Below, piece by piece: positions 1,000 through 17,831 of a stretch of DNA of 17,831 bases (within the stretch, counting starts at the first letter, position 1; every line of letters begins with the position of its first letter). The translations under genes and the position numbers were made by a program. The notes beneath the pieces are model-generated. The model made no database searches. It saw only the letters and a list, made by a program, of their open reading frames with translations, and had not been told where the DNA came from. The stretch is taken from IMG/VR virus record IMGVR_UViG_2695420624_000004. One strand, 5' to 3'. The stretch comes from a virus. Taxonomy: Duplodnaviria; Heunggongvirae; Uroviricota; Caudoviricetes.

Positions 1000-1040
1000 T
1001 AATTAATTTATTTTTTTGAGGGGGGGGGTAATATACTCAT
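1000..1040 (+). promoter_or_regulatory. Candidate iraM promoter (TAATAT -10-like element at 1029-1034)
   Basis: AT-rich region with a TAATAT hexamer about 70 bp upstream of the iraM start. No clear -35. Inferred from sequence only. Confidence 0.3.
1020..1028. repeat. G9 homopolymer preceded by T7, inside the putative iraM promoter
   Basis: Sequence reads TTTTTTT-GA-GGGGGGGGG-TAATAT at 1011-1034, about 78 bp upstream of the iraM ATG. The tract lies just upstream of a -10-like TAATAT. Confidence 0.9.
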
Positions 1041-1531: not shown

Positions 1532-1696
1532 TTACATGTTTTCGATGATCGCTTCACCAAACTCTGAACATTTCAGCAGCTTAGCGCCTTCCATCAGACG
1601 TTCGAAGTCATAAGTTACGGTCTTGGCATTGATTGCGCCTTCCATACCTTTAACAATCAGGTCAGCCGCTTCAGTCCAACCCATATGGCGCAGCAG
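1532..1696 (-). pseudogene. icd: Displaced 3' fragment of isocitrate dehydrogenase (icdC-type), last 54 codons plus stop
   Basis: Minus-strand translation reads [54 protein letters not shown], the Icd C-terminus. Homology stops abruptly at about 1696; upstream is unrelated AT-rich DNA. The 165-nt length matches the e14-type integration site in icd. Confidence 0.85.
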
Positions 1697-1885
1697 TATA
1701 TAAAAACCATGAATTCAAGTCATTGATATTTAACGATAAAAATTATTTTATTGTCTTTTTATTAGCCAAAATAAACTTTATTCAACCGTTTGATTTCATT
1801 GACGTTCGTTTTTATTTTGGGGAAAGGTTTTCTCTACCATTTATATCCAAATTACAAGTCTACATTTTATTAACATCTCAATACA

Positions 1886-1916
1886 TGTGAGGCCTTGCAG
1901 ACCTTTGTGAGACCTT
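1886..1916. repeat. Clustered direct repeats TGTGAG(G/A)CCTT / GACCTT in the att-proximal arm
   Basis: Reads TGTGAGGCCTT-GCAGACCTT-TGTGAGACCTT within 31 bp, about 200 bp inside the prophage from the att junction. Arrangement resembles recombinase arm-type sites. Confidence 0.4.
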
Positions 1917-2396
1917 ATGTGTCTCTGTTTTGTCCCAACTTATGTTAAGAGGCACATAATTAAAAATAAGATAACGATGCCGCCAAGCAGTGCAAAACCT
2001 TGTTTACTCCACGACTGTCTGCCCCATTATCTGCATACATAATTATCCTCCATAACTGAGATAAATGTCGGTTATGAGCGAACAACAGACGTTTAGTTTA
2101 TGATGGCTGTGTCTATACATTAAACATAACATCCATTACCGGCACCGCTTATTAATTGCTATCTGATATTGTCACTAAAAAAATAGGCATTCCCCGATAT
2201 AATAATCACAAAGAAGCTTTTGGTGCTGGCAATCGGTATACCTCATAGTGGACTGCGACTTTCCGGGCACGACAAGGATATATCAATGTATGAGCAGGAA
2301 AATTAGACCGTGGTGCGTCATATGATGACTAAGCACGGATAACAGCTACTTAATTGAAACTATTGATTATATTACAGCCAGTGCCTTATAGGATGG

Positions 2397-3518
2397 TTAG
2401 TCATCAACCGCGACTCCTGCACAATCATGGGCTATTGCCAGCAATTGTTTTTTAATTGCTTTAGCATCTACCGTCATATCTACTGTAGCAAAATGGATCT
2501 TATGTCCCTGAGTGACAACATACTCATTAAGCATATAGCCAACAGCTGGATGAAGTAGAAGACCAGCGGCATTGAGCGAAAGCGGATCCGTCTTGTTCTC
2601 CTGTGTTCTAAGGTAGGTATATAGCTGATAAATATAGCCATTACGTAGTGATTGCTCCCGATGCCAACCCTTTGTCAGAATCGAATTAAATTTGGTATCG
2701 ATAATAATACGCCGCTGGGCAGTCTTGTGTTCCAGAATAATGTCTGACTTCATTGTCGGGAAAATCTCTGCACTACCTGCACTTTGATCGCTCAACGCCC
2801 ATTTCAGCTCTTTCCCTGCAGAGACCTGCCAAGTTGTTTTGGCAAGGTGTACACGATATAAGCCAGCGATACCTTTTTCAAATAGTCTTCTCATCCAGTA
2901 AAGGTTATTTGAGGGCGCAGGTAAAAGATATTGGCCTTGATCTTCGGTCGGCATCAGCAGTTCAAAAGCTAATCGTGCGGCATCGACCATCGGTTTATCT
3001 GCGGCATCATGGCGTCCAAAACGCCACACTGAGGGTAATTCGCGGGGGGCAGGATATCCTCCATTTATCCCCTCACGGCGAAGTGATATTGCCATAAAAT
3101 GGCAATCTGCCGCCAAAGACGGTTTCACTATGATTGAGGCCAGACGTTCTAACGCACAGCGAACATAGCGATTTCGGGGGGTGTTGAGGGTTATGTCTTG
3201 AAAATGGCAGGCAACCTGTCCCCGTTCCAGCAGTTGATGACTGGCAGTATACAGTATGTCAATGCGCCCTCTCACCCGGTTCAGGGCCGCATGACAAGTT
3301 TGGTATCCCATATTTAAATTGCGACGTCGGCGCAGCGTAATCTCATGAAGGAGGATTGTCGCCACCAGGTCGGGGATTTCTGCTGGGTTATCTTCTACTG
3401 CGATCTGATTGCGCCCTAACTGGCGAAACAGATCTGAAGCGTACAGCATCAGCATCCAGATATTTCGCATGGGAATACGTGATGCTGTATGTTGCTCACT
3501 CCCGGTTATTGTCGTCAT
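2397..3518 (-). CDS. McrC-family nuclease subunit of a Type IV (modification-dependent) restriction system
   Basis: 373-aa ORF. N-terminal PMRNIWMLMLYA resembles the McrC N-terminus; the IIIDTKF...QSLRNGYIYQLYTYL block matches the McrC PD-(D/E)xK nuclease region. Start ATG overlaps the upstream stop as ATGA. Confidence 0.8.
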   Translation of the reverse strand: MTTITGSEQHTASRIPMRNIWMLMLYASDLFRQLGRNQIAVEDNPAEIPDLVATILLHEITLRRRRNLNMGYQTCHAALNRVRGRIDILYTASHQLLERGQVACHFQDITLNTPRNRYVRCALERLASIIVKPSLAADCHFMAISLRREGINGGYPAPRELPSVWRFGRHDAADKPMVDAARLAFELLMPTEDQGQYLLPAPSNNLYWMRRLFEKGIAGLYRVHLAKTTWQVSAGKELKWALSDQSAGSAEIFPTMKSDIILEHKTAQRRIIIDTKFNSILTKGWHREQSLRNGYIYQLYTYLRTQENKTDPLSLNAAGLLLHPAVGYMLNEYVVTQGHKIHFATVDMTVDAKAIKKQLLAIAHDCAGVAVDD

Positions 3519-5497
3519 TTTGCTAATAACACTTTTCTGGCTTCATCGACTTTATTTGGAGCATCGAACCAATATTCGGCGAGCAAAGGGCAGATCTCTG
3601 TATCAACGACTTGTTCATACCAAGCCTGGGCATCGTTGATTTTTTGGCCGATAGCTGGGGTGACATAGCTGTGACCGATACAAAACTGTGGTCCTAAGGT
3701 AACATCTTTTGCCAGCATATCGTTTAATACCGTCAGTCGAGATTTGATGAATGCTAACATGTCAAAATCAATTGCGTAATTATAATTTACCCAGTTTCTC
3801 CACGCGTCATTAAAAGCTGGCTTTAGATCGATAAACGCGAAACGACGGCGCAGCGCTAGGTCAAGTAGTGCGAGTGAGCGGTCTGCAATATTCATCGTAC
3901 CGATGATATATAGATTCTCAGGAATGTATATTTTTTCATCAGCATTTTTAGGATAGGAAAGAGATAATGCCTCAGTCGGCGTGCGTTTATCTGCTTCCAT
4001 CAACGTGAGTGTTTCACCGAAGATTTGCGCCGGATTGCCACGATTAATCTCTTCAATTATCACCACATATTTCGAGGTAGGATTATTGACTGCAGTTTTG
4101 ATTGCATTTACAAAAGGTCCATCAATTAGCGTCAATTGCCCTTCTTTACCTGGACGCCAGCCTCGAATAAAGTCTTCGTAAGAGAGGTTCGGGTGAAATT
4201 GCACCGCGCTAATACGCTCAGGTGCTTTTTCTCCCATCAAGCAGTACGCCAGACGTCGCGCTAACCAAGTTTTTCCAGTTCCGGGTGGTCCTTGTAATAT
4301 CAGGTTTTTCTTGTCGATCAGGCGCTGAAGTGTGAGTTGGATCTTAGCCTCTTCCAAGAAACAGCCATCCTGCACCAGATGACTGATGTCATAAGGAACG
4401 TGGGTGAGTTTTGGCAACAGCGCACTCTCTTCGACAGTTTCCTCAGTTATCGTCTGGGATTCGTTTTTCTCAAAATTCAGGTATTCATAATTTCCGGACT
4501 CGAGGGACTTTAACTCATCATCATTGCATAGTTTCTGTAGATAAAAGTAGATTGAGCTTGTAACAGTTTTGCTCTCAGGATGCTCTACCTTGAATACGTC
4601 CAAGTAGTTTTCTTCCAACTCCGAAGCAGTGAAATAAGGGCCATTTTTTTTCAGGCATAACGCCTTAATTTTATTCAGTAAAGAGGCTTTCCACGTTCTA
4701 TTTGCCACCTCATCTTTAGACTGGCTAAGATCTGTATTCCACGCTGATAAGGAAAGTTCTGGGAAAGAATGAACCGGATAGTTTGGTTGGGTAAAGACCT
4801 CGTTCAGCGCCCGCATAAGACTCAGGTAACTTTGTCCACTACAGCGACCTTTTGCCCCGTTTTTAATGATCTTAATGTTTAACACTGTCTGAATGTAATA
4901 CTGCGACTGGCTATCTAAAGTGGGGTAGAACCAAGGACGGGTCCAGTACAACCCCATGGTGAGATTCCAACCGACATTCATTACTGTAGAAGCGATGTCA
5001 TATGCGGCAGTGAAGTCTGCAGAGTTAGTATTCTGGTTATCCGCAAAGATCATTGCCTGTGAGAACATTTCCCACAAGCATTCAATGTCATTAGGGTCGC
5101 GTGACTTTTCATAACCAAAGAACCAAGATTTTTGGTTATTCAACAGAGGGATTCCGGCAAAGGAGTCAGGAATCGGTTCGTTCACGCCCAACAAATTCGC
5201 TAGCTTGGCAGCAATAATTTTGCGATTGCTGTCGGTCAAGTTACGATTGAACAAGCCCATAGTAGTAAACGGACAAATGTCTTTTAAGGGAAAGATCTCT
5301 CCCATAATAGATTTGTCCTGCAGATGGGACATTCCTTCCACACCCGAGGCAATTAGATGAATACCTTTGACTAATTCATCTCTACGATTTCGCCAAGTCA
5401 GTAACGCGTTGGCAAAAGCCTCATAAAAACTAGCCCAAGCAAACTTGCCATCATGTTCTGCTGTATCCACGGGAACTCCATTATACTTGTTGAGCAA
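3515..5497 (-). CDS. McrB-family AAA+ GTPase with an extended, uncharacterised N-terminal region of about 400 aa
   Basis: Walker A LILQGPPGTGKTW and a C-terminal IIGTMNIADRS...ALRRRFAF block typical of McrB. The annotated start is TTG; an in-frame GTG at 5470 with GGAG 5 nt upstream and a TATAAT just before it is a plausible alternative start. Confidence 0.85.
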   Translation of the reverse strand: MLNKYNGVPVDTAEHDGKFAWASFYEAFANALLTWRNRRDELVKGIHLIASGVEGMSHLQDKSIMGEIFPLKDICPFTTMGLFNRNLTDSNRKIIAAKLANLLGVNEPIPDSFAGIPLLNNQKSWFFGYEKSRDPNDIECLWEMFSQAMIFADNQNTNSADFTAAYDIASTVMNVGWNLTMGLYWTRPWFYPTLDSQSQYYIQTVLNIKIIKNGAKGRCSGQSYLSLMRALNEVFTQPNYPVHSFPELSLSAWNTDLSQSKDEVANRTWKASLLNKIKALCLKKNGPYFTASELEENYLDVFKVEHPESKTVTSSIYFYLQKLCNDDELKSLESGNYEYLNFEKNESQTITEETVEESALLPKLTHVPYDISHLVQDGCFLEEAKIQLTLQRLIDKKNLILQGPPGTGKTWLARRLAYCLMGEKAPERISAVQFHPNLSYEDFIRGWRPGKEGQLTLIDGPFVNAIKTAVNNPTSKYVVIIEEINRGNPAQIFGETLTLMEADKRTPTEALSLSYPKNADEKIYIPENLYIIGTMNIADRSLALLDLALRRRFAFIDLKPAFNDAWRNWVNYNYAIDFDMLAFIKSRLTVLNDMLAKDVTLGPQFCIGHSYVTPAIGQKINDAQAWYEQVVDTEICPLLAEYWFDAPNKVDEARKVLLAK

Positions 5498-5830
5498 TGA
5501 TAATTTATCTGTGTGAGTTTTAACATATTACTATCAGTTATAGAAAAATTTAACTATCCGATACAGAGAGCGGAATGCTGAATTTGACCTGACTTGCTTC
5601 CAACCAATTAAAATCAACTTATTTATCAATTGGTTATTTTGGCACATGGCGGTCATCAAGGCAATATCGCGTTGTCATAAGGTGTCGAGGCTCGGAGGTT
5701 CAAATCCTCTCATACAAAAAATAAATAAAATTAATGACGGTTGGAAATTATTCAATACACTCTCGAAAGTACATCAGCCAACCGCAGCACGTTATTGCAT
5801 ATAACGTTTCTGCGGCATATCACAAAACTA

Positions 5831-6415
5831 TTATTCCATAACAGGGATTGCAGGCCACTCAATATCAGGTGCAGTTGATGTATCAACACGATTCAGCAAC
5901 ACCCGATACTTCTTCCAGGCTTCAAGCAACGAGGTTTCTTCCTCCGTTGCGATTTCCAGATCTGCAGCATCCTGAAGCGGGGCAATATGCTCACTGGCTA
6001 CCTGCATCAGGCTGTTTTTTGTTTCTTCCGCCTCCCGGATCCGGAACAGTTTTTCTGCTTCCGTATCCTTCACCCAGGCTGTGCCGTTCCACTTCTGAAA
6101 CTCCCCTTCCGGGGATAACCAGGTGATATTTTCCGGTAGAGGTCCGAGTTCAGAAATAAATAACGAGTCGCCGGAAGCCACGTCATAGACGGTTTTTCCC
6201 CGATGATCTTCAACGAGATGCCACGATGCCTCATCACTGTTGAAAACAGCCACGAAGCCTACCGGAATATCTGGCGGTGCAATATAGGTACTGTTTGCTG
6301 GCAGACCTGTATGAGGCGGAATATATGCGTCACCTTCACCAATAAATTCATTAGTTCCGGCCAGCAGATTATAAATTTTTATGGTCCGTGGTTGTTCACT
6401 CATTCTGAATGCCAT
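5831..6415 (-). CDS. tfa: Tail fibre assembly protein (lambda Tfa-like)
   Basis: 194-aa ORF ([24 protein letters not shown]...WPAIPVME), near-identical to lambda Tfa as I remember it. Start overlaps the stf stop by 1 nt (TAATG). Confidence 0.9.
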
Positions 6416-9264
6416 TATGCAAGCCTCACAATGTAGTTAAATGCGATGTTTTTGACGGTGTTTTCCGCGTTACCAGCAGCGTTAACGGTGATGGTGTGTC
6501 CATGTGAGCCAATCGCAACGGAGTGCGTATGAGCACCAATACCGACAGTATGTGCATGTGCGCCTGCGCTTGCAGCAGTGCCGGACAGCGAGTGGGTATG
6601 AGCACCATCTGATGATGTCTTCCCTGCATTACGAGTCTGGCCACTACCGCTTGTTGTGCTCATAATCCCCGCGCTTGGATTTGAAATCGCGGTATAACCA
6701 TTAGGGAAAATGCTCGTGTTCGTGCCACCAAATGCACCGGAACTCTTGTGTTGGTGCGCGCCGGCACTATTTGCGGTCCCGCTAATACTATGGGTATGCG
6801 CCCCGGTGTTATTCGTGGATTTGGTTCCGTAATCAAACGACGATGTGGTTTTCGTCCCCAAATCCGTACTGGATGCGCTGGCGCTGTGGGTGTGCGATTT
6901 AATGCCGTCCTGTTCCTGAGACAATACGGCCCGACCACTGGCAGGTTTGCCCTTAATCGTCCAGCCACGCATATCAGGGATCACGCCTGACGGATAAGCG
7001 GCTGCAAGTTTCGGGTAAGCAGATTTGTCAAAAGTCTGCCCCTGCATCAGGGCATAACCAGACGGAACGGTATCTGATGGCCACGGGATTGGTGCGCCGA
7101 CTGGGTAGCTTTCTGGTGGAAGATTTTTCGAGGTATAAACTTCTGCCCAGCCTTCCTCAAAACCATAACCGTCTCTTGAAGAACGGTAGAACAGACCACC
7201 ATTTCTGTAATGCGCCTTCATCTGCAGGGTCCGGCAACTTCCGACTCCGGTATAGAAGTTAACCAGAATATAGCTGTCGCCAGAGCGGGTGACATTGTAA
7301 GCGCCTGATTCGGCATTCCAGGGAACGCCACCATCCGCATCGGCATATGTATCCGTTGCCCTTCTGGCAAAAGCAGCCACATGCGCGGCGGTTAAAGTAA
7401 TATCTTTGGAACCATCAAATGGAACACCGGATATTTTTCTTGCAGTCTGGAGTTTTGTAGCAGTTGCAGCATTACCAGTGGTGTTCTGATTACCCGTAGT
7501 GTTTACACCTGGAAGGTTAATATTTGCAGAACCGTCGAAAACAACTCCACCGATAGATCTTGCCGTCTGCAATTTCGTGGCTGTACTTGCATTACCATTC
7601 AATGAACCAGTTAATCCACCTGTAACAGACAACGGACCTGAAACTGTTCCTCCGGTTGTTGGCAGTGCTCCAATATCTGATGGTGTAGGTTTCTGATGTG
7701 AGCTATACATCGTATAAACAACACCATAGGTAACGCTGGAAGGCTTACTCGCTGAATATGTTGGCGAGGTATAAACAGAAACTGACGCATTTGCAGTACA
7801 ATCCCAATGGATATTTACACTCGTCGCATAATTGCCAATCTCAACGTAAATATCATATGTATCGCCGGATGTGTTGATCCAGGCGAAATTCGTTAATCCG
7901 ACGGCTGTACGCTTCCACAAAGCCCCGGTAATTCCTTTGGGGTTTCCATTGCCTGCTCGTAGAACCAGTTCTGAAATGCCTGCCTGATGTGGGGAACCGA
8001 CGTTGTAACCAGCGCCACCAATCAATGCGATGTAAACGATGGAACTCGCTTGTGGCATGGTAACCGTAGCCAGTTTGAACCACCCAGCCCCGCCAGAGAA
8101 AGACATCGTTACTGAATTTAAAGTACCAATATCTTTCGGCGTTAATGTTATATCCGCAGTCAGTGCTTTTCCGTTAACTTTTCGGTTAGATGGCACCCTG
8201 CTATTCGCATTGTCATTGGCTGCTTTAACTGCTTTTGGCGTTGCGGCCAGCGATTCACTGGTGCTATCAACAGCACTGCTAAGTTTCACAACACCTTTAG
8301 TTGTAAGGCTTGCGTCTTCCATCGCAACTGCACCGGCAATCTCTTCAGCACGATCAGCAGCAGCTTCCGCACGGGTCGCAGCGGATTCAGCAGTAGTTTT
8401 GCTCTGAGATGCCGCCGTCGCACTGCCAGCTGCCTCTGTCGCCTTCGTGGATGCTGTCGTGGCGCTGCCTTTCGCTGCTGATGCCTGTCTGCTCGCCTCA
8501 TCTTTTGAAGCAGACGCAGATGATGCCGATGACGCCGCCGAACTGGCGGACGATGCAGCTGCCATTTTTGAGGATTCTGCACTGGTTTCCGAGGCTTTCG
8601 CGTTCGTTTCGGATGTCTTCGCTGCGGATGCAGACCTCGCTGCTGCGCTGGCCTGTTCAGCGGCTTCGCCAGCCTTCGTTGTGGCTGTTGAAGCAGACGA
8701 TGCGGCGCTTTCTGCCGATTTTCCGGCGGCGGTGGCACTGGCTGAGGCCTGCCCGGCACTTGTTGACGCGGCACTGGCAGACGACGCAGCCGCTGTTTTT
8801 GAGCCTGCCGCAGCCGAGGCGCTCTGTCCCGCTGCCGTTTCAGAAGACCTGGCGTTTGTCTCAGACGTCTTTGCCGCCTTCGCGGAATTGCCTGCCGCCG
8901 TTGCCGAGGAAGCGGCACTACTGGCGCTTGATGATGCGTTCGTTTCTGATGATTTCGCTGCCTCTTTTGAGGCCGCCGCATCCCGGGCTGAGGTGGCTGC
9001 TTCTGACGCCTTCGTGGTCGCGGCGGATGCAGAAGTGGCTGCTGATTGTTGTGACGCTGCCGCATTCGTTTCTGACGTTTTCGCCGCACCGGCACTGGTA
9101 GCTGCCGCGCTTTTTGAGGACTCTGCAGCAGCACTTTTTGCTGCTTCACGGGCCTTTGTCGATGCCGTTCCTGCGCTGGAAGACGCTGACTGAGCCGACG
9201 ACGCGGCCTGTCCGGCTGACGTGCTGGCGGCACGTGCTGAGCCTGCAGCATCGGTTATTACCAC
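6415..9264 (-). CDS. stf: Side tail fibre protein (lambda Stf-like), body and receptor-binding tip; N-terminal part is in another frame
   Basis: Long Ala/Ser-rich KTSETNA-type fibre repeats, a conserved GAPIPWPSD...[24 protein letters not shown] region and a His-rich HxH C-terminal tip ending [11 protein letters not shown]. Confidence 0.85.
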
Positions 9265-9577
9265 TTCCCGGATCGCTATACGCTATTCCGTTAAAGATAA
9301 TGGGCGGAATAATGATTTGACGGTCAAAGTTATGATCATCGCTGATGGTGACTGTAACCGTCCCGTTTGGTGTTTCCGTATTACCCCACGTACCAGCCTG
9401 TTTCGGGAATGATTTGGATACAGCTTTAACGAAGTCACCTCTGACCGGACTCCCCTGCCCGTCAACCAGGCTTATCAGCGTGGTGCCGGAAGATGGCAGC
9501 GTGATTTCACGGTCGAGCGTCAGCGTCCGGGTCTGGCTGTTTACCGCCAGCACGCGCCCGCCGGTGCGGATACCCAA
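9146..9577 (-). pseudogene. Upstream segment of the tail-fibre reading frame, out of frame with the stf body (frameshift or junction)
   Basis: This ORF overlaps the stf body ORF at 9146-9264 in a different frame. Its first ~100 codons look like real protein, then it degenerates into an out-of-frame read of the Ala/Ser repeats. Assignment as Stf N-terminus is tentative. Confidence 0.4.
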
Positions 9578-9795
9578 GCTGGAGTGGCGAACGTTTTACC
9601 CTTGCTGATGAGGTATTCACTGATTTCGCTGTACCACATGTGGCTGAGTGCATTCTGGGAAAGACTGCGTCTCTCGCGCCACGGTTTAAGCACCATGCGA
9701 AAGCATTTGCCGTCCTCCAGATAAGGCTGGATCTGCCGACCGATAGCGGTGAAGTTACCGCGATGCAATTTGATACCATCTTGTGGGAGGTTCAC
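9541..9795 (-). pseudogene. NinB/YbcN-family protein, N-terminal fragment truncated by a deletion joint
   Basis: 84-aa ORF with GTG start preceded by GGAGG. The block KPWRERRSLSQNALSHMW resembles the NinB RSLDQNRKLW region. The ORF ends prematurely in non-homologous sequence near 9541-9580. Confidence 0.45.
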
Positions 9796-9989
9796 GCTTC
9801 ACCTCCGCAGAGATCAAACGCTGGATGCAAAATATCGCAGGTGCATTTCTGCATCTGTGAATGGAGAAGAGAGGTTGGATTGTATGTGCGCATAAACGTC
9901 CCCGTTTAGCGCAGAAGTCACCGGAGTTGTTCAGGCCCCAATGGCATGATTATGGCTGGTTGATTATTGGAAATCAAATGTGCTGAAAA

Positions 9990-10499
9990 TTAGTCTGCCA
10001 AGTCTTCCTCAGTCGCAACTGGGTAATTCCAAATATCAAAAAAAGCTATAGCCTCCTGCCATTTGCTCCATAAGTTATCAAGTACTTGTGTAGGTTCCGT
10101 ACTTTTAAAAACAGAATCAGCCGCATCACCGTTATGAACTTCCTCGTACAGTTCCATTATTAGCAGATTAACAAAGTACTGTTTCAACATTAATGCCTGA
10201 TTACCTTCTTTCTGCTGGCTATCCTGCTTGATGATCTCCATCGCCCGTACTAGGCACCTGATGATATCCGCTGCATCATTAACGCTCCATTCAGATCCGC
10301 GCTTATCTTTAGCTGATGAATTGGCTCTCTCAGCGCAAGCCTTTAAAGACTCATAAAGGTAAACTCTATTTTGTAGCTGCAGCGCTTTTTTTGACGTGTA
10401 CCAACTTGCAAGCGCCGACCCCGCTGCGGCTAATGTGCCAAACGCAGAAATACCTGCTGCTATTGCACTTAAGTCGGCACTGTCAAAGTTCCACATCAT
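9990..10499 (-). CDS. Hypothetical 169-aa protein with one N-terminal hydrophobic helix (membrane-anchored); stand-alone moron
   Basis: ATGATG start preceded by AAGGTG at 5-nt spacing. Upstream AT-rich region has -35/-10-like elements. Residues 10-33 (LSAIAAGISAFGTLAAAGSALASW) are hydrophobic; the rest is charged and helical-looking. No family recognised. Confidence 0.6.
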   Translation of the reverse strand: MMWNFDSADLSAIAAGISAFGTLAAAGSALASWYTSKKALQLQNRVYLYESLKACAERANSSAKDKRGSEWSVNDAADIIRCLVRAMEIIKQDSQQKEGNQALMLKQYFVNLLIMELYEEVHNGDAADSVFKSTEPTQVLDNLWSKWQEAIAFFDIWNYPVATEEDLAD

Positions 10500-10675
10500 C
10501 GTTACACCTTATATAAATACCCCTCAGTAATATCCAATAAGGTATGTGCACAATCAATATAATTTTATCCGTATCGGCACATAGCGATTTGAACGCTACT
10601 GGTAATGGTATATTTTAGATTATATCGTCCAGTTTACAGCACCCGTATTTTATGAAATGGACTCGCATATTACCC

Positions 10676-10714
10676 AAAAAATGCCAGCACTTCCGTCATC
10701 GTAGAATGCTGGCA
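10676..10714 (-). terminator. Rho-independent terminator between orf99 and orf169
   Basis: Perfect 8-bp inverted repeat TGCCAGCA/TGCTGGCA with a 17-nt loop, followed on the minus strand by a T6 run. Confidence 0.5.
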
Positions 10715-10757
10715 GTATTTCTAACTAGTGACTTTATTGGAACAGATTCTGACGGAA

Positions 10758-11057
10758 TTATGGTAACACTCGACTCCACTTATCATCCAGCCACGGCTGG
10801 AATTTTACATGTGCCGTTTCTCTGGCGAGGATTGCTCGCGCTCTGTTGAGTATCTGGGGATATTCTTGCTCGATAGAAGTAAAGCGGCCGGCTTCGCGGT
10901 GCTCCGCAACCTGAAGTAGTGGAGTAACGTTCTGGCAGGCAGTTAACATCACATCACCTGCTCGCCATAACCAAGCACGTGCACAAAGTTTGTTATCAGT
11001 GAATTGTTTTGTGATTGGGTATTGTTGAACTGCTAGAACGAGAACGCCAGCATCCAT
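10758..11057 (-). CDS. Hypothetical 99-aa protein (nin-region cargo)
   Basis: ATG-initiated ORF with AGGGA upstream, co-directional with ybcK and the orf169 moron. No family recognised. Confidence 0.45.
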   Translation of the reverse strand: MDAGVLVLAVQQYPITKQFTDNKLCARAWLWRAGDVMLTACQNVTPLLQVAEHREAGRFTSIEQEYPQILNRARAILARETAHVKFQPWLDDKWSRVLP

Positions 11058-11168
11058 TGGCAGTCCCTATAGTAAAACCATAGCTCAGGACGCTTCGTTC
11101 AGGATAGATAATTTTATTGTACTTACCTAACTTTCTTACTATAGCACGGTTGAAAAAGTGATTATTAC

Positions 11169-12695
11169 TCAAAAATAAACCTCACCATCAACCATATATT
11201 TGAGAGTACTTATCGCCTGCTGGGCGGATATTGTTTTCATTAAAGGATAGTGTTTAAAAACAATGCCATTCATAAAATAGATATCACAGGTTTTATTATC
11301 TGTATTGATTATGATTTTTTCGAATGTTTTATAGGCAAGTGTACGACATAGCTCTCGCCCATTTTTACTGGTTAAGTCAATAGCATGAAAATCACCAAGT
11401 GAACTCACCGCTTTACTCTTCAAAGTTTTTAATGATACAGAAGCCCTTCGTAATTCCTTATCTAATACTCTGATTTTTTCTGCTATAGCGGTAACTTCAG
11501 GCGCAACAGATAATGCAGCAATTAAATTATTAATTTTCATCTGGAGCTCAATAATTTTCAACTCTAAAGTTTCATTAGCATCTTTCTTGTTTTCAACTGG
11601 TTGGATTTTACTACAATTAAAAAGCAACTCATTAATGATATTATAATCAACCAAATCTCTCTTTATTGATGGCCTGTCACATCGATGCAGTCTTCTCATC
11701 GGACAAACATAATAGCCATGCAAACTTCCAGATACCGCATGAACAATCATGGTATTACCACAAGCCTCGCACTTCATAACTGTTCGAAGTAGATTTATCA
11801 ACATAGGATTTTTGCTACTATTGCTAATACCAAAAGGTGCCAACCGAATTTCCTGCACAGCGTAAAACAAATCATCTGATATGACTCTGGGATAATAGCC
11901 AGCGATTTCACTTATTCCTTTACCTCTTGCACGATATGAAGGTACGCATATACCTATCAGAGCTTTATTCGCTAATAATTTTTCAATTACAGAAGGTCCC
12001 CATGCACTTTCTTTTCCTGAGAAATTCTTTACAGCATGATCATTTAAATACTTGGCTATTGCATTCAATGAGCGCCTTTCCATCCTGAGTTTAAAAATTA
12101 GCTCAATAGTTTTCACCCTGTCGGGGTCTGGAACAAAAGCCGTTCTTTTGTCATCCAATGAGAGCCATCTCGGACAAGACGCCGTCATAATCGTGCCTGA
12201 CTCCAGTGCATCCTGCCGTTTTTTCTTCCATGATAATTTAACCCGACTTGACTTTATCTCGCTTTCTTCATTTGCCCTTTGTGCTATAAGTATGGCTTTT
12301 ATTAATGAATATGGCTCATTCAATGAGTCAATATTATAGACTGTATTATCGCAAAGAGTTATAACATCAATACCGTGATTCAAAATCAATTTCAGACGCT
12401 CAATCGCCTCACCGACTTTTTCTCTTGAAAGTCTGTCCAGACTTTCAACTAACAATGTAGTCCCTGGCAATATATAACCATGTTCTATAGCATCTAAAAA
12501 TTCCGAAAAAGCTCCTGATTGTGCATGCTTTCCATTGAATGCGCTTAACCCCAAATCTTCATACGTTACGGTATCAAGGTAATAATCACTATTTACCTTT
12601 AGCCATTCAGTAATAAGCCTTCTCTGGCGGTTTAATGAATCACCAGACATCTGACTTGGTGATGAAAATCGCATATATGCTATGGCTTTTTTCAT
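11169..12695 (-). CDS. ybcK: Large serine recombinase (YbcK-like)
   Basis: 508 aa. N-terminal resolvase-type catalytic domain (AIAYMRFSSPSQ with the presumed serine nucleophile), recombinase domain and a Cys-rich zinc-ribbon region (CEACG...CPMRRLHRC). Length and position next to emrE match DLP12 ybcK. Confidence 0.8.
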   Translation of the reverse strand: MKKAIAYMRFSSPSQMSGDSLNRQRRLITEWLKVNSDYYLDTVTYEDLGLSAFNGKHAQSGAFSEFLDAIEHGYILPGTTLLVESLDRLSREKVGEAIERLKLILNHGIDVITLCDNTVYNIDSLNEPYSLIKAILIAQRANEESEIKSSRVKLSWKKKRQDALESGTIMTASCPRWLSLDDKRTAFVPDPDRVKTIELIFKLRMERRSLNAIAKYLNDHAVKNFSGKESAWGPSVIEKLLANKALIGICVPSYRARGKGISEIAGYYPRVISDDLFYAVQEIRLAPFGISNSSKNPMLINLLRTVMKCEACGNTMIVHAVSGSLHGYYVCPMRRLHRCDRPSIKRDLVDYNIINELLFNCSKIQPVENKKDANETLELKIIELQMKINNLIAALSVAPEVTAIAEKIRVLDKELRRASVSLKTLKSKAVSSLGDFHAIDLTSKNGRELCRTLAYKTFEKIIINTDNKTCDIYFMNGIVFKHYPLMKTISAQQAISTLKYMVDGEVYF

Positions 12696-12880
12696 GGTGA
12701 CACCTGCTAAAGTATGCTTTTATAAACCTTAGTGGTGAGATATGATTTTTGTTTAATTTTTATTTAAAAAGACAATTAAGGTCACATTATCTTGAATATA
12801 CAACAATAATCGTATTGCAATTTTCTTACACCATAATCTTGAAAGCACAAAAGAATGAATAAAAACTAAAGACATTAACA

Positions 12881-12919
12881 AAAAGCATAAAACGAGGCCC
12901 ATATAAATATACGAGCCTC
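12881..12919 (-). terminator. Possible emrE terminator (weak hairpin plus T-rich tract)
   Basis: GAGGC/GCCTC 5-bp stem with a long AT-rich loop, followed on the minus strand by GTTTTATGCTTTTTG, about 30 nt after the emrE stop. Confidence 0.3.
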
Positions 12920-12950
12920 CATATTTTAGTCGTTTAAAAACAAATTATTT

Positions 12951-13283
12951 TTAATGTGGTGTGCTTCGTGACAATAAATTAATAACCAACACACCGGCAC
13001 AAATCAACATCATGCCTATAATGGCTGGCAGGTCCAACCGTTGGCCGAAAAATCCCCATGATAGTAAGCTAATCAGGACAATACCGACTCCTGACCAGAT
13101 AGCATAAGCAATCCCTGTAGGAATATAAGCCAGCGTCTGAGCTAATAACCAGAATGATGCACAATAACAAATAATTGTACCAACAGATGGCCATAACCGT
13201 GTAAAACCTTCTGAAAACTTCATTAAGGTTGTACCAATGACCTCTGCAAGTATTGCACCACCAAGATAAATATAAGGATTCAT
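12951..13283 (-). CDS. emrE: SMR-family multidrug efflux protein EmrE (110 aa)
   Basis: MNPYIYLGGAILAEVIGTTLMKFSEGF...LLSRSTPH is essentially the EmrE sequence. The ORF track's 128-aa version starts 18 codons upstream; the true start is the ATG at 13283. Confidence 0.9.
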   Translation of the reverse strand: MNPYIYLGGAILAEVIGTTLMKFSEGFTRLWPSVGTIICYCASFWLLAQTLAYIPTGIAYAIWSGVGIVLISLLSWGFFGQRLDLPAIIGMMLICAGVLVINLLSRSTPH

Positions 13284-13350
13284 AGCATATTCTTTCCTGT
13301 TCAAACTGGAGAGAATTGTACTACAGTTTGAACTCAACTCACCTGTTTCA

Positions 13351-13653
13351 TCATTGTGTACCCATTGATGTTCTTTTATATACCCTCAATACCCGTTTCA
13401 TCGCGGCACTCTGGCGACACTCCTTAAAAATCAAATTCGTGCTCACCTTTCCTTCCCATTCTTCTCTGGTAGCGAACCGATAATACACCGTTCGCCAGAC
13501 CTTACCATCAACGACTAGGATTCCTGCCCGCGCCATTTTAGCCGCAGCCTGATTTATGCTGGTTACCGTTGCGCCTGTTACCGCGGCAACGTCCTGCGCA
13601 CAGAATTTCTTATGAGTCCCCAGGTAATGAATAATTGACTCTTTGCCCGTCAT
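13351..13653 (-). CDS. ren: Ren-like protein
   Basis: MTGKESIIHYLGTH...AAKMARAGILVVDGKVWRTVYYRFATREE is near-identical to lambda Ren. Start overlaps the P stop (ATGA). Confidence 0.85.
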   Translation of the reverse strand: MTGKESIIHYLGTHKKFCAQDVAAVTGATVTSINQAAAKMARAGILVVDGKVWRTVYYRFATREEWEGKVSTNLIFKECRQSAAMKRVLRVYKRTSMGTQ

Positions 13654-14351
13654 ACCCTTGCTCCTTTCAGCCCAAACTTAGCTTTGATTTCTGCGATCTT
13701 CGCCAGAGCCTGTGCACGATTTAGAGGTCTACCGCCCATGACAGGAAGTTGTTTTACTGGTTCAGGTATAGCCTCACCACGGTTAATTCGTGCGGTCATA
13801 CAGGACAGTTCATCGGCAGCCTTGCGCCGTAATTCCGCGTCAGTCAACGCATTGGCCCGCATGTTCTGATACAGGTTGGTAACCAGCCAGTAGTGCGCGT
13901 TTGATTTCCACGGATAAGACTCTGCATCCGGATACAGCCCGCGCTTCCGGCAATACTCGTAAACCATATCAACCAGCTCGCTGGCGTTTGGCAGCCCGGC
14001 GGTAACGGATGCTTCTTCCCGGCACCAGGCGACAAACTGCCCGGGTGATGGCAGGAATGGTCGATTCTGCCGACGGGCTACGCGCATTCCAGCGTTAACC
14101 TGTTCCATTGTGGTGATCCCGTTTTCCCGAAAAGCCAGCACCCACTGGCGGCGGATTTCGTTCAGTTCATTCTGGTCACGGTTAGCCAGGCTCGCCGGGA
14201 AAGTTGCCAGTAACTGGCTGAACACACCGTTGATGATCTGCGCTACCTGCTGTACCTGTGGCTTTTCGTCGTACTGTTCCGGCATGTTGTTGGCGATCCG
14301 ACGCATCTGCTCACGGTCAAAGTTAACCATCTGTGCGGCGATGTTTTTCAT
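13650..14351 (-). CDS. P: Replication protein P (lambda P-like, full length, 233 aa)
   Basis: MKNIAAQMVNFDREQMRRIANNMPEQYDEKPQVQQ... near-identical to lambda P over the full length. Confidence 0.9.
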   Translation of the reverse strand: MKNIAAQMVNFDREQMRRIANNMPEQYDEKPQVQQVAQIINGVFSQLLATFPASLANRDQNELNEIRRQWVLAFRENGITTMEQVNAGMRVARRQNRPFLPSPGQFVAWCREEASVTAGLPNASELVDMVYEYCRKRGLYPDAESYPWKSNAHYWLVTNLYQNMRANALTDAELRRKAADELSCMTARINRGEAIPEPVKQLPVMGGRPLNRAQALAKIAEIKAKFGLKGARV

Positions 14352-14584
14352 AGATCCACCCCGTAAATCCAGTCAGTGTTTGTCAGGTCGAGTTTTGGTT
14401 TGCCGACTGTCACGCCAGCCTGTTGCTTGTTCCGGTTGATTTCGAGCTGGGTCCACTTGTCGCGGAGTTTGGCCGGACTCAGCACGTTACCGGACCAGAA
14501 GTTGTCCTGGCAGGCCCAGCGGAACAGTACACACATGTCGCGGTGGTTACGTCCATCACGTTCACGCATCAGACGGATATCGTT
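14348..14584 (-). pseudogene. O: Replication protein O, C-terminal ~78 codons only
   Basis: ...[59 protein letters not shown]...[13 protein letters not shown] matches the lambda O C-terminus. The first 16 codons of the ORF-track call are antisense to exo and not O. Confidence 0.8.
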
Positions 14585-15238
14585 ACCGGGATCGACGTGA
14601 GAGCTGTCGAACAGGGGGATGATGCGTGGCACAAATTACGGCTCGGCGTCATCACCGCTTCAGAAGTTCACAACGTGATAGCAAAGCCCCGCTCAGGAAA
14701 GAAGTGGCCTGACATGAAAATGTCCTACTTCCACACCCTGCTTGCCGAGGTTTGCACCGGTGTGGCTCCGGAAGTTAACGCTAAAGCACTGGCCTGGGGA
14801 AAACAGTACGAGAACGACGCCAGAACCCTGTTTGAGTTCACTTCCGGCGTAAATGTTATTGAATCCCCGATCATCTATCGCGACGAAAGTATGCGCACCG
14901 CCTGCTCTCCCGATGGTTTATGCAGTGACGGCAATGGCCTTGAACTGAAATGCCCGTTTACCTCCCGGGATTTCATGAAGTTCCGGCTCGGTGGTTTCGA
15001 GGCCATAAAGTCGGCTTACATGGCCCAGGTGCAGTACAGCATGTGGGTGACGCGAAAAGATGCCTGGTACTTTGCCAACTATGACCCGCGTATGAAGCGT
15101 GAAGGCCTGCATTATGTCGTGGTTGAGCGGGATGAAAAGTACATGGCGAATTTTGACGAGATGGTGCCGGAGTTCATCGAAAAAATGGACGAGGCACTGG
15201 CTGAAATTGGTTTTGTATTTGGGGAGCAATGGCGATGA
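14585..15238 (+). pseudogene. exo: Lambda exonuclease (Exo/Red-alpha) lacking its first ~9 codons; joined head-to-head to O'
   Basis: From [41 protein letters not shown] to the C-terminal FVFGEQWR this is near-identical to lambda Exo. The N-terminal 54 codons of the ORF-track call are antisense to O. No ATG start at the joint. Confidence 0.8.
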
Positions 15239-15393
15239 CGCATCCTCACGATAATATCCGGGTAGGCGCGATCACTTTCGTCTACTCCATTACAAAGCGA
15301 GGCTGGGTATTTCCCGGCCTTTCTGTTATCAGAAATCCACTGAAAGCACAGCGGCTGGCTGAGAAGATAAATAACAAACAGGAGGATATATGA
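15235..15393 (+). CDS. Small 52-aa ORF, lambda orf60a-like, coupled to exo
   Basis: [55 protein letters not shown] overlaps the exo stop (ATGA) and its stop overlaps the next ATG (ATATGA). Not in the ORF track because it is under 60 aa. Resemblance to lambda orf60a is from memory. Confidence 0.5.
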
Positions 15394-16454
15394 GTCAGGT
15401 TGGTAATCATTCATTCGAATTTCCGGCATCGCAAGGTGTACAGGGTGGTACTGTTACACTCTTCCTTACCATACCAGGAAGATCGCTGGCTCGTTTCCTC
15501 GCTTCAGATAATTACGGCCATACACTGGAACGCTCTCAGCGAGAAATTAATCCAAATCGAGTACGAAAATTTTTAAATTATCTCACTAACGCAGACTCAA
15601 GAAATGAGCCTTTTATCATTCCCCCTCTCGTAGGTAACTGTGATTCGAATATAGAATTTGTACCGTTTGGCAACACAAATGTTGGTATAGCCAGAATTCC
15701 CCTCGACGCCGAAATAAAACTTTTTGATGGTCAACATCGTGCAGCTGGCATTGAGATATTTTGCCGAAGTTCCCCATCAACGCTCATGGTTCCCATGATG
15801 CTTACAATGAATCTGCCGCTAAAAACCCGGCAGCAGTTCTTTTCGGACATAAATAACAACGTTTCTAAGCCATCAGCGACCATCAATATGGCGTATAACG
15901 GCCGGGATGATATTGCTCAGGGAATGATATCCTTCCTGACCCAACATACTGTATTTGCCGATATAACCGATTTTGAACACAACGTAGTGCCATTAAAAAG
16001 TAATATGTGGGTGAGTTTCAAGGCACTCACTGATGCAACGTCAAAGTTCGCTAGGAACGGCAATCAACAACTTGAAATGGGATATATAGAATCTGTCTGG
16101 GAGGCATGGATTACACTAACTCAGATTGACTCAATCCGACATGGTGTACACCACGCTACGTACAAGCGCGATTATATTCAGTTCCATGGAGTAATGATTA
16201 ACGCTTTCGGTTTTGCGGTTCAACAGATGATGGTTAATCATTCCATCGCAGAAATAACTTCTATGATCGAAAAACTATGTGCAACTACCAGCTCTGCAGA
16301 AAGAGAGGATTTTTTTCTGATGGATAACTGGGCGGGGATCTGCACGAAAGCCAGCCAGGAAAAACTATCTGTTATTGCCAATGTGGCAGCGCAGAAAGCA
16401 GCAGCAAACAGACTGATACAAGCTTTTACCAAAGGAAGTCTGGAAACAACTTAA
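15390..16454 (+). CDS. DGQHR-domain (DndB-like, ParB/Srx-type) protein, 354 aa
   Basis: Literal motif FDGQHRAAGIE at about residues 113-123, in the position expected for DndB/DGQHR proteins. Translationally coupled to the upstream small ORF and followed by a terminator. Confidence 0.7.
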   Translation: MSQVGNHSFEFPASQGVQGGTVTLFLTIPGRSLARFLASDNYGHTLERSQREINPNRVRKFLNYLTNADSRNEPFIIPPLVGNCDSNIEFVPFGNTNVGIARIPLDAEIKLFDGQHRAAGIEIFCRSSPSTLMVPMMLTMNLPLKTRQQFFSDINNNVSKPSATINMAYNGRDDIAQGMISFLTQHTVFADITDFEHNVVPLKSNMWVSFKALTDATSKFARNGNQQLEMGYIESVWEAWITLTQIDSIRHGVHHATYKRDYIQFHGVMINAFGFAVQQMMVNHSIAEITSMIEKLCATTSSAEREDFFLMDNWAGICTKASQEKLSVIANVAAQKAAANRLIQAFTKGSLETT

Positions 16455-16521
16455 TGAATCAACATTGTCTCATATCAGCATGCTGTACGGCGTCTTTAAG
16501 GAACGGTGAGCATGAAAAACA

Positions 16522-16542
16522 AAATCATCATGGAGCTACAGG
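16522..16542 (+). terminator. Rho-independent terminator downstream of the DGQHR gene
   Basis: GGAGC-TACAG-GCTCC hairpin immediately followed by TTTTTTATT. Confidence 0.5.
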
Positions 16543-16607
16543 CTCCTTTTTTATTATTCGCATTCACCCTCAAGCGTATTAACCAACAATTCAGGGATTA
16601 ATGAAAG

Positions 16608-16826
16608 ATGGCAGACATCATTGATTCAGCATCAGAAATTGAAGAATTACAGCGCAACACAGCAATAAAAATGCGCCGCCTGAACCACCAGGCTATATCT
16701 GCCACTCATTGTTGTGAGTGTGGCGATCCGATAGATGAACGAAGACGCCTGGCCGTTCAGGGTTGTCGGACTTGTGCAAGTTGCCAGGAGGAGATCGAAC
16801 TTAAGAACAAACAATGGGGACTGTGA
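16608..16826 (+). CDS. TraR/DksA-family C4 zinc-finger protein (lambda Orf73-like)
   Basis: 72 aa with a CxxC...CxxC arrangement (HCCECGDP...GCRTCASC) typical of TraR/DksA C4 fingers, in the exo-xis accessory region where lambda encodes its TraR-like protein. Confidence 0.7.
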   Translation: MADIIDSASEIEELQRNTAIKMRRLNHQAISATHCCECGDPIDERRRLAVQGCRTCASCQEEIELKNKQWGL

Positions 16827-16873
16827 TGGCTTCAAAGCAGCAAATTTCAACATCGTCCAACTGAGGTGTAAAA

Positions 16874-17113
16874 ATGTTCAGAATCATTTTTCCTAACACC
16901 TGGTACGTCGACCACCACGGCACTCCCTGCAAAATCCTGCGTTCTACCCACAACAAAGTTCACTACATCCGAAAAGGCAGAACATGTATCGCCAGCATGT
17001 TCCGCTTTAATCATGACTTTGAACCTGTGAATAAAGCTGATGCAGATCGGATAGCAGAAGAGATCGAAACGGCAGAACACATTAAGAAGTTACGTGCCAT
17101 ACGCAGGAAATAG
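16874..17113 (+). CDS. Hypothetical 79-aa protein (exo-xis accessory region)
   Basis: ATG preceded by GAGGTG at good spacing. Basic C-terminus. Co-directional with the TraR-like gene. No family recognised. Confidence 0.5.
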   Translation: MFRIIFPNTWYVDHHGTPCKILRSTHNKVHYIRKGRTCIASMFRFNHDFEPVNKADADRIAEEIETAEHIKKLRAIRRK

Positions 17114-17162
17114 AAAAATTGATAAATTCAATACTGCATTACTCAGCATTAAATTTATCTCT

Positions 17163-17831
17163 ATGTGAACCGCCCCGGGTTTCCTGGAGAGTGTTTTATC
17201 TGTGAACTCAGGCTGCCAGATCATCGTTTCCGATGGAAGCATAATAAGCTTTTTCTGCTTCTGCCGGAGGAGTATGGCCCAGCCTTTCCAGCAATCGTCG
17301 ATTGTTATACCAGTCCACCCACGTGAGTGTGGCCAGTTCCACTTCTGCACGGTTTTTCCAGCTCTTACGGTGTATTACCTCCGCTTTGTAAAGACCATTG
17401 ATGCTCTCCGCCATCGCGTTGTCATACGAGTCGCCTGTACTTCCTGTTGATGCCAGTAATCCGGCTTCCTTAAGCCGCTGTGTGTAGGCCAGCGATACAT
17501 ACTGAGAACCTTTATCACTGTGATGGACCGTGCCGGACGGTCGACGGGCCCATAACGCCTGCTCCAGTGCATCCAGCACGAATGTCGTTTCCATGGACGA
17601 TGAGACCCGCCACCCCACGATGTATCCGGCAAACACATCAATGATGAACGCCACATAGACGAAGCCCCGCCATGTGCTGACGTAAGTAAAATCAGCCACC
17701 CACAGCTGGTCAGGTCGTTCTGCCACGAACTGACGGTTTACGCGGTCGCCTGCGGCAACGGCTTTCCGGCTGATGGTCGTACGGACCTTTTTACCCCGGA
17801 GAACACCGGCAAGTCCCATAACCGCCATGAG
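17163..17831 (-). mobile_element. IS3-family insertion sequence (IS629/IS3411-like end), truncated by the window edge
   Basis: Terminal inverted repeat beginning TGAACCGCCCCGGGTTTCCTGGAGAG at 17163, about 45 bp from the transposase stop. Only the orfB-proximal end is present. Confidence 0.75.
17208..17828 (-). CDS. IS3-family transposase OrfB (DDE integrase core), partial; N-terminus outside the window
   Basis: 206 aa of open frame running to the window edge. Contains IS3-family DDE-core-like blocks (HSDKGSQY, DNAMAES). Confidence 0.8.
   Translation of the reverse strand: MAVMGLAGVLRGKKVRTTISRKAVAAGDRVNRQFVAERPDQLWVADFTYVSTWRGFVYVAFIIDVFAGYIVGWRVSSSMETTFVLDALEQALWARRPSGTVHHSDKGSQYVSLAYTQRLKEAGLLASTGSTGDSYDNAMAESINGLYKAEVIHRKSWKNRAEVELATLTWVDWYNNRRLLERLGHTPPAEAEKAYYASIGNDDLAA

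Follow-up and report, generated by a model that had tools for sequence, protein, structure and literature searches.

A poly-G tract of variable length upstream of iraM

This study concerns a run of nine G residues upstream of iraM in a 17,831-nucleotide (nt) stretch of DNA, the virus record IMGVR_UViG_2695420624_000004; the whole stretch is called the window here. The IraM protein acts as an anti-adaptor, protecting RpoS from RssB/ClpXP. A preliminary description, made from the letters alone, had placed the run inside the putative iraM promoter, directly before a -10-like hexamer, and had suggested that slippage could change its length and thereby iraM expression. The features at the tract are the following.

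1011-1019, + strand: T7 (1011-1017) followed by GA (1018-1019); T7 is essentially invariant in the K-12-type allele, with rare T>C changes
1020-1028, + strand: poly-G tract, G9 here (GGGGGGGGG); hypervariable element, G6-G14 among K-12-type alleles
1029-1034, + strand: TAATAT, the -10-like hexamer of the preliminary description; invariant in all alleles (alignment columns)
1106-1429, + strand: iraM, 107 amino acids, from the open reading frame list and from how RefSeq annotates loci of the same or nearly the same sequence; its product does not differ from IraM of K-12 MG1655

Direct reading of the window gave the same coordinates for T7-GA-G9 and TAATAT (1011-1034) as the preliminary description, and its placement of the tract in the iraM upstream region was borne out. 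That description put the iraM start about 78 bp away, which agrees with the 77 nt that separate the end of the G run from the ATG at 1106. The tract is the longest homopolymer of the window. It had been called unusual for AT-rich DNA, and this agrees with the composition of the spacer between ycgX and iraM (406-1105, 700 bp), which is AT-rich with 14% G and in which, if bases are drawn independently, about 1e-5 runs of nine or more Gs are expected. When the whole window (45% GC) was shuffled with dinucleotides preserved, two overlapping G8 matches, as observed, were reached in 13/200 shuffles. Long G/C runs are generally scarce in Escherichia coli, and across about 176 kb of further E. coli sequence the sole G/C run of at least eight was this same tract. 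The tract is real, correctly placed and above chance.

The iraM upstream region was present in 3,920/5,426 complete E. coli genomes. The K-12-type allele, defined as at least 99% identical to the window, was found in 1,336/3,920 genomes, and 2,380 genomes carried sequences that were 90–95% identical. In an alignment of representative genomes the K-12-type allele reads T7-GA-G(n), where n is 7, 8, 9 or 10 and the flanks are otherwise identical. The motif that is a pure G run in this phylogroup-A-like allele is short or interrupted in the other alleles of the alignment, which read T6-GAAGGGG, T7-GAGGGGG, T6-GGGGAG or T7-GGGAG. The GAAGGGG alleles are essentially invariant.

Tract lengths were counted using probes of 84–99 nt, differing in n only, against the complete E. 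coli genomes. The identity band of at least 99% also takes in partial-coverage hits of 100% identity (17–42 for trimmed probes). G9 and G11 were recounted with an E-value limit that passes exact full-length matches only. The partial-hit baseline was about 14 for probes of 95–99 nt, and the approximate figures below were corrected by that amount.

G6: 3 genomes, exact full-length matches
G7: about 140 genomes (at most 154), identity band
G8: 595-615 genomes, identity band plus evenly spaced row listing
G9: 267 genomes, exact, strict E-value limit
G10: about 130 genomes (at most 143), identity band
G11: 60 genomes, exact, strict E-value limit
G12: 15-46 genomes, best estimate about 27
G13: 2 genomes, exact full-length matches
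G14: at least 1 genome

The K-12-type run thus differs by one-base steps, from G6 to G14, in near-identical surroundings. The distribution is broad and unimodal over G7–G12, the modal length is G8, and about half of the K-12-type alleles are non-modal. Now and then the pure run is broken by a G>A point mutation. The G9 of the window is a common natural allele, with 267 complete genomes matching the 97-nt G9 probe exactly, and as an uninterrupted repeat it is long enough for slippage (about seven or more). Comparison of independent assemblies, which had been proposed as a check, therefore gave a clearly variable tract with near-identical flanks (G6–G14 between strains with identical flanks). 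The claim that the run is prone to slippage held up on three counts: the G6–G14 range among about 1,300 genomes, a G7–G10 range in metagenomes, and a gain of one base in laboratory MG1655. Indels also occur next to the tract. Some non-K-12 alleles have a 7-bp insertion (a TTTTAAT-like duplication) about 20 nt 5' of the T run, in the 995-1001 region. No other part of the region upstream of iraM is as prone to indels as 990-1028, whereas conservation is seen in the PhoP box, in the TAAATT hexamer (both described below) and in what follows the tract.

Since assemblies from long reads get the length of G/C runs wrong, the differences could in principle be homopolymer miscalls on an invariant tract. 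Three K-12 derivatives (DH5alpha CP025520, HST04 and ER1709) have G7 while five K-12 references (MG1655, W3110, BW25113, DH10B and DH1) all have G8, a discrepancy most simply explained by such error. Against this account, the variation recurs in metagenome contigs from human gut and food, whose SPAdes-style names suggest short-read assembly. The K-12-type contigs had G7 (2), G8 (10), G9 (8), G10 (1) or a tract interrupted by G>A (3), whereas 22/23 contigs of the G4 allele, T6-GAAGGGG, from these data were identical. Long-standing reference genomes also disagree, MG1655 having G8, enterotoxigenic E. coli H10407 G10 and HS G11. Clonal sets, on the other hand, are concordant: besides the five K-12 references, serial sequence type 617 (ST-617) isolates from one patient (PMC5404521) were 4/4 G11, Z217-2 and Z217-4 both had G8, and E2, TUM3755 and TB4019 all had G9. 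Finally, the proportion of non-modal alleles is far above any plausible error rate, and a length change has been called from Illumina reads at a frequency of 1.000 in one population and is absent from its sister. We consider miscalling an extremely improbable explanation of the variation. The possibility of an artefact raised in the preliminary description is accordingly rejected at the level of the population. It stands for single assemblies, where an error of plus or minus one base is possible, and the exact count in this one assembly could be off by that much.

The Illumina call comes from silver-adapted MG1655. Population SAM7 carries '1,212,080:1 +C' at f=1.000, listed as intergenic (-77/+623) iraM/ycgX, and sister population SAM6 lacks it; the calls were made by breseq from Illumina reads (PMC11510482, Table 1). 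In the supplement of that study iraM figures solely as a mutated site. Coordinate mapping places MG1655 1,212,080 on the 3' edge of the run, so the mutation is a G8 to G9 change. A full-text literature search found no paper that discusses this tract, and its sole trace was this unremarked row of a mutation table (PMC11510482). Among ten genomes that share the 16-kb prophage haplotype of the window (98–100% identity), the tract was G7 in one, G8 in five and G9 in four. Since a single prophage-sharing haplotype has mixed lengths, the tract changes much faster than its surroundings. Within clones the record of switching consists of one +1 change fixed in a laboratory line, set beside K-12 references that are all G8 and serial isolates that are all G11. 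The tract appears heritable and only moderately unstable, not a fast phase switch, because the clonal sets agree and the five K-12 references all have G8.

The iraM promoter and leader

iraM is PhoP-dependent (PMC10948607; PMC13529223), and its promoter has been described as having one strong and one weak PhoP site (PMC13529223). A spacing of 12 nt between box and -10 hexamer defines architecture I/II PhoP promoters; a direct PhoP box is active at 12 nt, 23 nt and weakly at 33 nt, and inactive at 48 nt (PMC3335776). The candidate elements upstream of the tract are listed here.

889-905, - strand: weaker PhoP-like box, CGTTTT-agatt-TGTTTA, reverse orientation, 36 nt 5' of the direct box
942-958, + strand: candidate PhoP box in direct orientation, TGTTTAacatcCATTGA (TGTTTA-acatc-CATTGA), first half perfect and second half degenerate
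955-983, + strand: candidate promoter TTGAGA-17-TATTTT from the promoter scan, overlapping the predicted TAAATT promoter
971-976, + strand: predicted -10 hexamer TAAATT of the PhoP-dependent promoter, exactly 12 nt after the PhoP box

The direct box, read against (T/G)GTTTA-N5-(T/G)GTTTA, thus has the 12-nt distance to a -10 hexamer that is typical of architecture I/II. Its half-sites are kept in 9/9 aligned alleles, with changes confined to the spacer, and GCTTTAAATTTT is invariant in the alignment of alleles, which supports TAAATT as the -10 hexamer. The weak box (889-905) and the strong box (942-958) are consistent with the published two-site description, as far as sequence can tell. The direct box and the weaker reverse box form an architecture-II-like arrangement that is conserved across all iraM alleles, and phoPQ itself lies about 6 kb from iraM in prophage-free strains. 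From the geometry of box and -10 hexamer, the PhoP-dependent start is predicted near 983-984. On that start, the leader would be about 122 nt long and the G run would span roughly +37 to +46 of it.

The only mapped iraM 5' end that we found comes from a 2009 study by 5' RACE (rapid amplification of cDNA ends) in K-12, where the gene appears under its old name ycgW (b1160); the end is at -87 with the listed sequence 'Tttttttgaggggggggtaat' (PMC2760140 supplement). The Cappable-seq, ROSE and Conway 2014 supplements gave none. Mapped via MG1655 coordinates, -87 in K-12 is the G of GA, window position 1018. The method used poly-A tailing and a T17 primer at 45 degrees C, did not select triphosphate ends, and is accompanied by the authors' own remark on 'ambiguity by tailing' (PMC2760140). 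If real, the RACE end would be a basal, PhoP-independent start, because the direct box is 48 nt from its -10, a non-working distance. If the end is a genuine start, the G run occupies +3 to +11.

The G run is transcribed under both readings of the start, and a switch acting through -35/-10 spacer length is therefore unlikely. The run also lies outside iraM and outside the short upstream open reading frame (uORF) described below. On these readings it is in none of the placements where length alters expression, namely the -35/-10 spacer, the phasing of an activator or a reading frame.

These positions bear directly on the model of the preliminary description, a phase-variable promoter in which the tract lies in or near the -35/-10 spacer, TAATAT is the -10 hexamer and one-G changes switch iraM. 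TAATAT has the A2 and T6 of a -10 hexamer, directly follows the tract and is invariant. AT-rich DNA bound by H-NS often holds many weak promoters, which also speaks for the model, and H-NS binding is listed in this spacer (PMC3946193). Nevertheless, no -35 hexamer with at least 4/6 matches was present at 16–18 nt from TAATAT, and the promoter scan does not return TAATAT. The PhoP box is 70 nt away, beyond the 12–33 nt working range of direct-orientation boxes. No mapped 5' end was found downstream of TAATAT or near -65, and the -87 end and the PhoP geometry both put starts 5' of the G run. Moreover, K-12 lineages decades apart all have G8 and serial clinical isolates are concordant, so the rate of change is probably below that of classical phase variation. 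We regard a phase-variable promoter as very unlikely. The earlier placement of the tract inside a promoter through a functional -10 is thus unsupported, given three observations: TAATAT lacks a -35, the PhoP box is 70 nt off and the RACE end falls at GA.

A 'constitutive iraM promoter', TTCATA-17-CATAAT (Shimada 2014, PMC3946193), was considered and rejected, as it maps to 431-459, about 650 bp from iraM. Found by genomic systematic evolution of ligands by exponential enrichment (SELEX), this sigma-70 promoter stands immediately before ymgL, a small gene discovered later, and is more likely the promoter of ymgL than that of iraM.

A transcribed tract could still act through the leader, setting IraM output and hence RpoS stabilisation under PhoP induction. 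Three routes can be pictured: the G-rich segment could be a Shine-Dalgarno-like element of the uORF, transcripts that start at GA could have altered promoter escape or undergo reiterative transcription, or the stability of the leader could change. The uORF is as follows.

1041-1109, + strand: uORF of 22 codons; its TGA overlaps the iraM ATG (ATGA)

Several observations favour such tuning. The predicted start is on one side of the tract and a dosage-sensitive gene on the other; of the PhoP targets, iraM is reported to be the most sensitive and not to saturate, and over-expressing it carries a cost by way of RpoS (PMC13529223). The G-rich motif stands before the uORF ATG in all alleles, with 12 nt between the end of the run and that ATG, and the uORF is open with the ATGA overlap intact in 11/11 allele variants. 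The G run comes immediately after the GA at which the 5' RACE end was mapped, and a +1 variant was fixed in one evolved line.

The candidate routes were examined individually. For the uORF, the chance probability of no stop is 0.57, and the changes among alleles (10 non-synonymous versus 3 synonymous) are as expected without constraint. The peptide is absent from the protein collection and is also unannotated. As a conserved peptide the uORF was therefore rejected, its openness not being significant and purifying selection being absent. For a Shine-Dalgarno element, 12 nt is also a long spacing. Leaders with G4 to G12 folded weakly by minimum free energy and by partition function, with the U run predicted to pair with a downstream A-rich stretch, and the predicted accessibility of the iraM ribosome-binding site was constant at 0.72. 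Rfam had no family matching the iraM leader. On these models RNA structure was rejected as a mechanism, the folds being weak and the accessibility independent of tract length.

As for reiterative transcription, codBA and upp initiate in a GA-T(n)-G stretch, and the GA-G(n)-U layout is similar. The homopolymer falls within the first transcribed nucleotides only if the -87 RACE end is true, and that end, obtained by a method that is ambiguous at T runs, is perhaps an artefact. In addition, slippage at initiation is least likely with rG:dC hybrids (bioRxiv 2024.12.23.630015). RNA structure, the uORF and reiterative transcription are thus conceivable but unsupported as leader mechanisms. The fixation in SAM7 came with several strongly selected mutations, so that hitch-hiking suffices to explain it, and the broad unimodal G7–G12 distribution resembles stepwise drift and not selection for given lengths. 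Taken with the points in its favour, tuning through the leader appears unlikely.

Neighbouring genes and the prophage

The remaining features of the left end of the window are given below.

1-405: ycgX, with which the window opens
458-568: ymgL, small gene
616-658, + strand: 43-nt direct repeat, copy 1 (84% identity between copies, spacing 865)
804-848: ymgK, small gene
1481-1523, + strand: 43-nt direct repeat, copy 2, which is the icd terminator hairpin
1532-1698: icd 3' fragment; the prophage junction lies in icd at about 1695

Positions 1-1690 differ from K-12 MG1655 by one single-nucleotide polymorphism in ycgX and one extra G in the tract. The repeat pair brackets ymgK and iraM and looks like the remnant of an insertion long ago, or of an attachment-site duplication, that brought iraM beside icd.

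The rest of the window (1695-17831) is a lambdoid, e14-like prophage in icd, where it replaces the e14 of K-12. At least 80% of it was covered in 17/5,426 genomes only. Its cargo includes an McrBC-like pair (McrC, 2397-3518, and an AAA ATPase, 3515-5497), a DndB/DGQHR protein (15390-16454), emrE (12951-13337), a large serine recombinase (11169-12695) and tail-fibre genes (5831-9264). Inside a prophage tail-fibre assembly gene, Rfam RF02111 (IS009 candidate small RNA) has a full-length match at 5874-6072 on the - strand with 214 bits. A fragment of an IS3-family transposase with rve domains lies at the end of the window (17208-17828, - strand). Most genomes that share the prophage lose similarity from about 17165, which suggests a strain-specific insertion of this element.

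iraM itself has been hit by an insertion sequence elsewhere. In the serial ST-617 mcr-1 isolates (MRSN346595 and three sisters, all G11) the gene is interrupted by ISApl1 (PMC5404521), so loss of IraM is tolerated in clinical lineages.

A probable hypermutable repeat beside an RpoS regulator

Phase variation through homopolymers or other repeats in promoters is known for poly-G at Neisseria meningitidis porA, poly-C at opc, poly-C at Bordetella pertussis fim2/fim3 and TA at Haemophilus influenzae hifA/B. There the repeat sits in the interval from the -35 to the -10 hexamer or just upstream of them and is usually longer (9–15 or more); switching occurs at 1e-2 to 1e-5 per generation, and on/off or graded expression has been measured. 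The iraM tract is like them in being a mononucleotide G/C run directly 5' of a gene that changes in one-base steps, differs between strains and fits slipped-strand mispairing. It is unlike them in that the run apparently lies 3' of the start and is stable in K-12 lineages and in serial isolates.

A closer likeness is found in E. coli itself. Lee and co-workers in 2012, among others, are said to have shown by mutation accumulation that long mononucleotide runs are indel hotspots limited by mismatch repair. Changes of plus or minus one at a G:C run of 8–9, a rate far above substitution, changes in evolution lines and decay by point mutation are all common to those hotspots and to the iraM tract. 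Whereas the mutation-accumulation studies describe a general phenomenon, the present case is a specific locus with species-wide G6–G14 variation beside an RpoS regulator.

If the RACE end is real, the transcript would start with GA and then a long homopolymer, as in the codBA and upp leaders (GA-T(n)-G). E. coli pyrBI and Bacillus subtilis pyrG (GGG) are further reiterative-transcription leaders, and pyrG shows that G runs can stutter. The iraM case is unlike these in that its start is uncertain and G:C hybrids resist slippage at initiation. We know of no nucleoside triphosphate-dependent regulation of iraM. A last comparison concerns the promoter upstream of the tract and not the tract. With a direct box 12 nt from a -10-like hexamer and a weaker box upstream, the iraM region resembles the PhoP architecture I/II promoters of mgtA, phoP, ybjX and virK (Zwir et al. 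2012, PMC3335776). It departs from their consensus in the degenerate second half-site of its candidate box.

Because it appears to lack the position that would couple length to expression, the tract belongs with hypermutable mononucleotide repeats and not with phase-variable promoters. The explanation that we favour, and consider likely, is that it is a slippage hotspot in the transcribed iraM leader, not in the promoter core, and that its changes in length are neutral or have little effect. Slipped-strand mispairing would create these changes where mismatch repair misses it. The pure run would drift in one-base steps by replication slippage, presumably far faster than point mutation but well short of the rate at classical phase-variable loci, and would at times decay by point mutation. 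The tract would be situated in the leader downstream of the conserved PhoP-dependent promoter. With the run downstream of the start, its length cannot alter the -35/-10 spacing, and at most it might modulate what depends on the leader, for instance promoter escape, mRNA stability or translation.

Several points weigh against this explanation. The phrase 'neutral or nearly so' is an estimate, not a result, and the retention of a G-rich motif and TAATAT in every allele hints at some constraint on the region. The PhoP-dependent start is deduced from architecture rules, and if the true start were 3' of TAATAT the tract would be promoter-proximal. The RACE end is ambiguous across T7 and may be an internal-priming product of a longer transcript. 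The counts for G7, G8, G10 and G12 are upper bounds or ranges that include partial-coverage hits. With three K-12 derivatives at G7 and five references at G8, homopolymer errors of long-read assembly must account for part of the variation between assemblies.

Through iraM, Mg2+/PhoPQ signals act on the stability of RpoS, and the level at which the gene is expressed has a fitness cost (PMC13529223). At least nine lengths in one third of the iraM-carrying genomes make the tract a conspicuous hotspot, and such polymorphism is striking for E. coli, beside a dosage-sensitive RpoS regulator. The functional effect of tract length is probably small. If length is without effect, the tract is a recurrent neutral 'mutation' in K-12 resequencing that should not be over-interpreted, and it would serve as a sensitive marker for the homopolymer accuracy of assemblies and for mismatch-repair status. 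That it is a genuine contingency-like tuning locus, at which one-base changes in the leader set the amount of IraM when PhoPQ is active, seems to us decidedly unlikely. Were it one, RpoS stability would shift heritably and reversibly in phylogroup-A-type E. coli, and the known differences in RpoS level between strains could then arise in a second way as well as through rpoS mutations. If length does affect IraM, the tract would be a simple way, and a reversible one, for the stress response to vary in nature.

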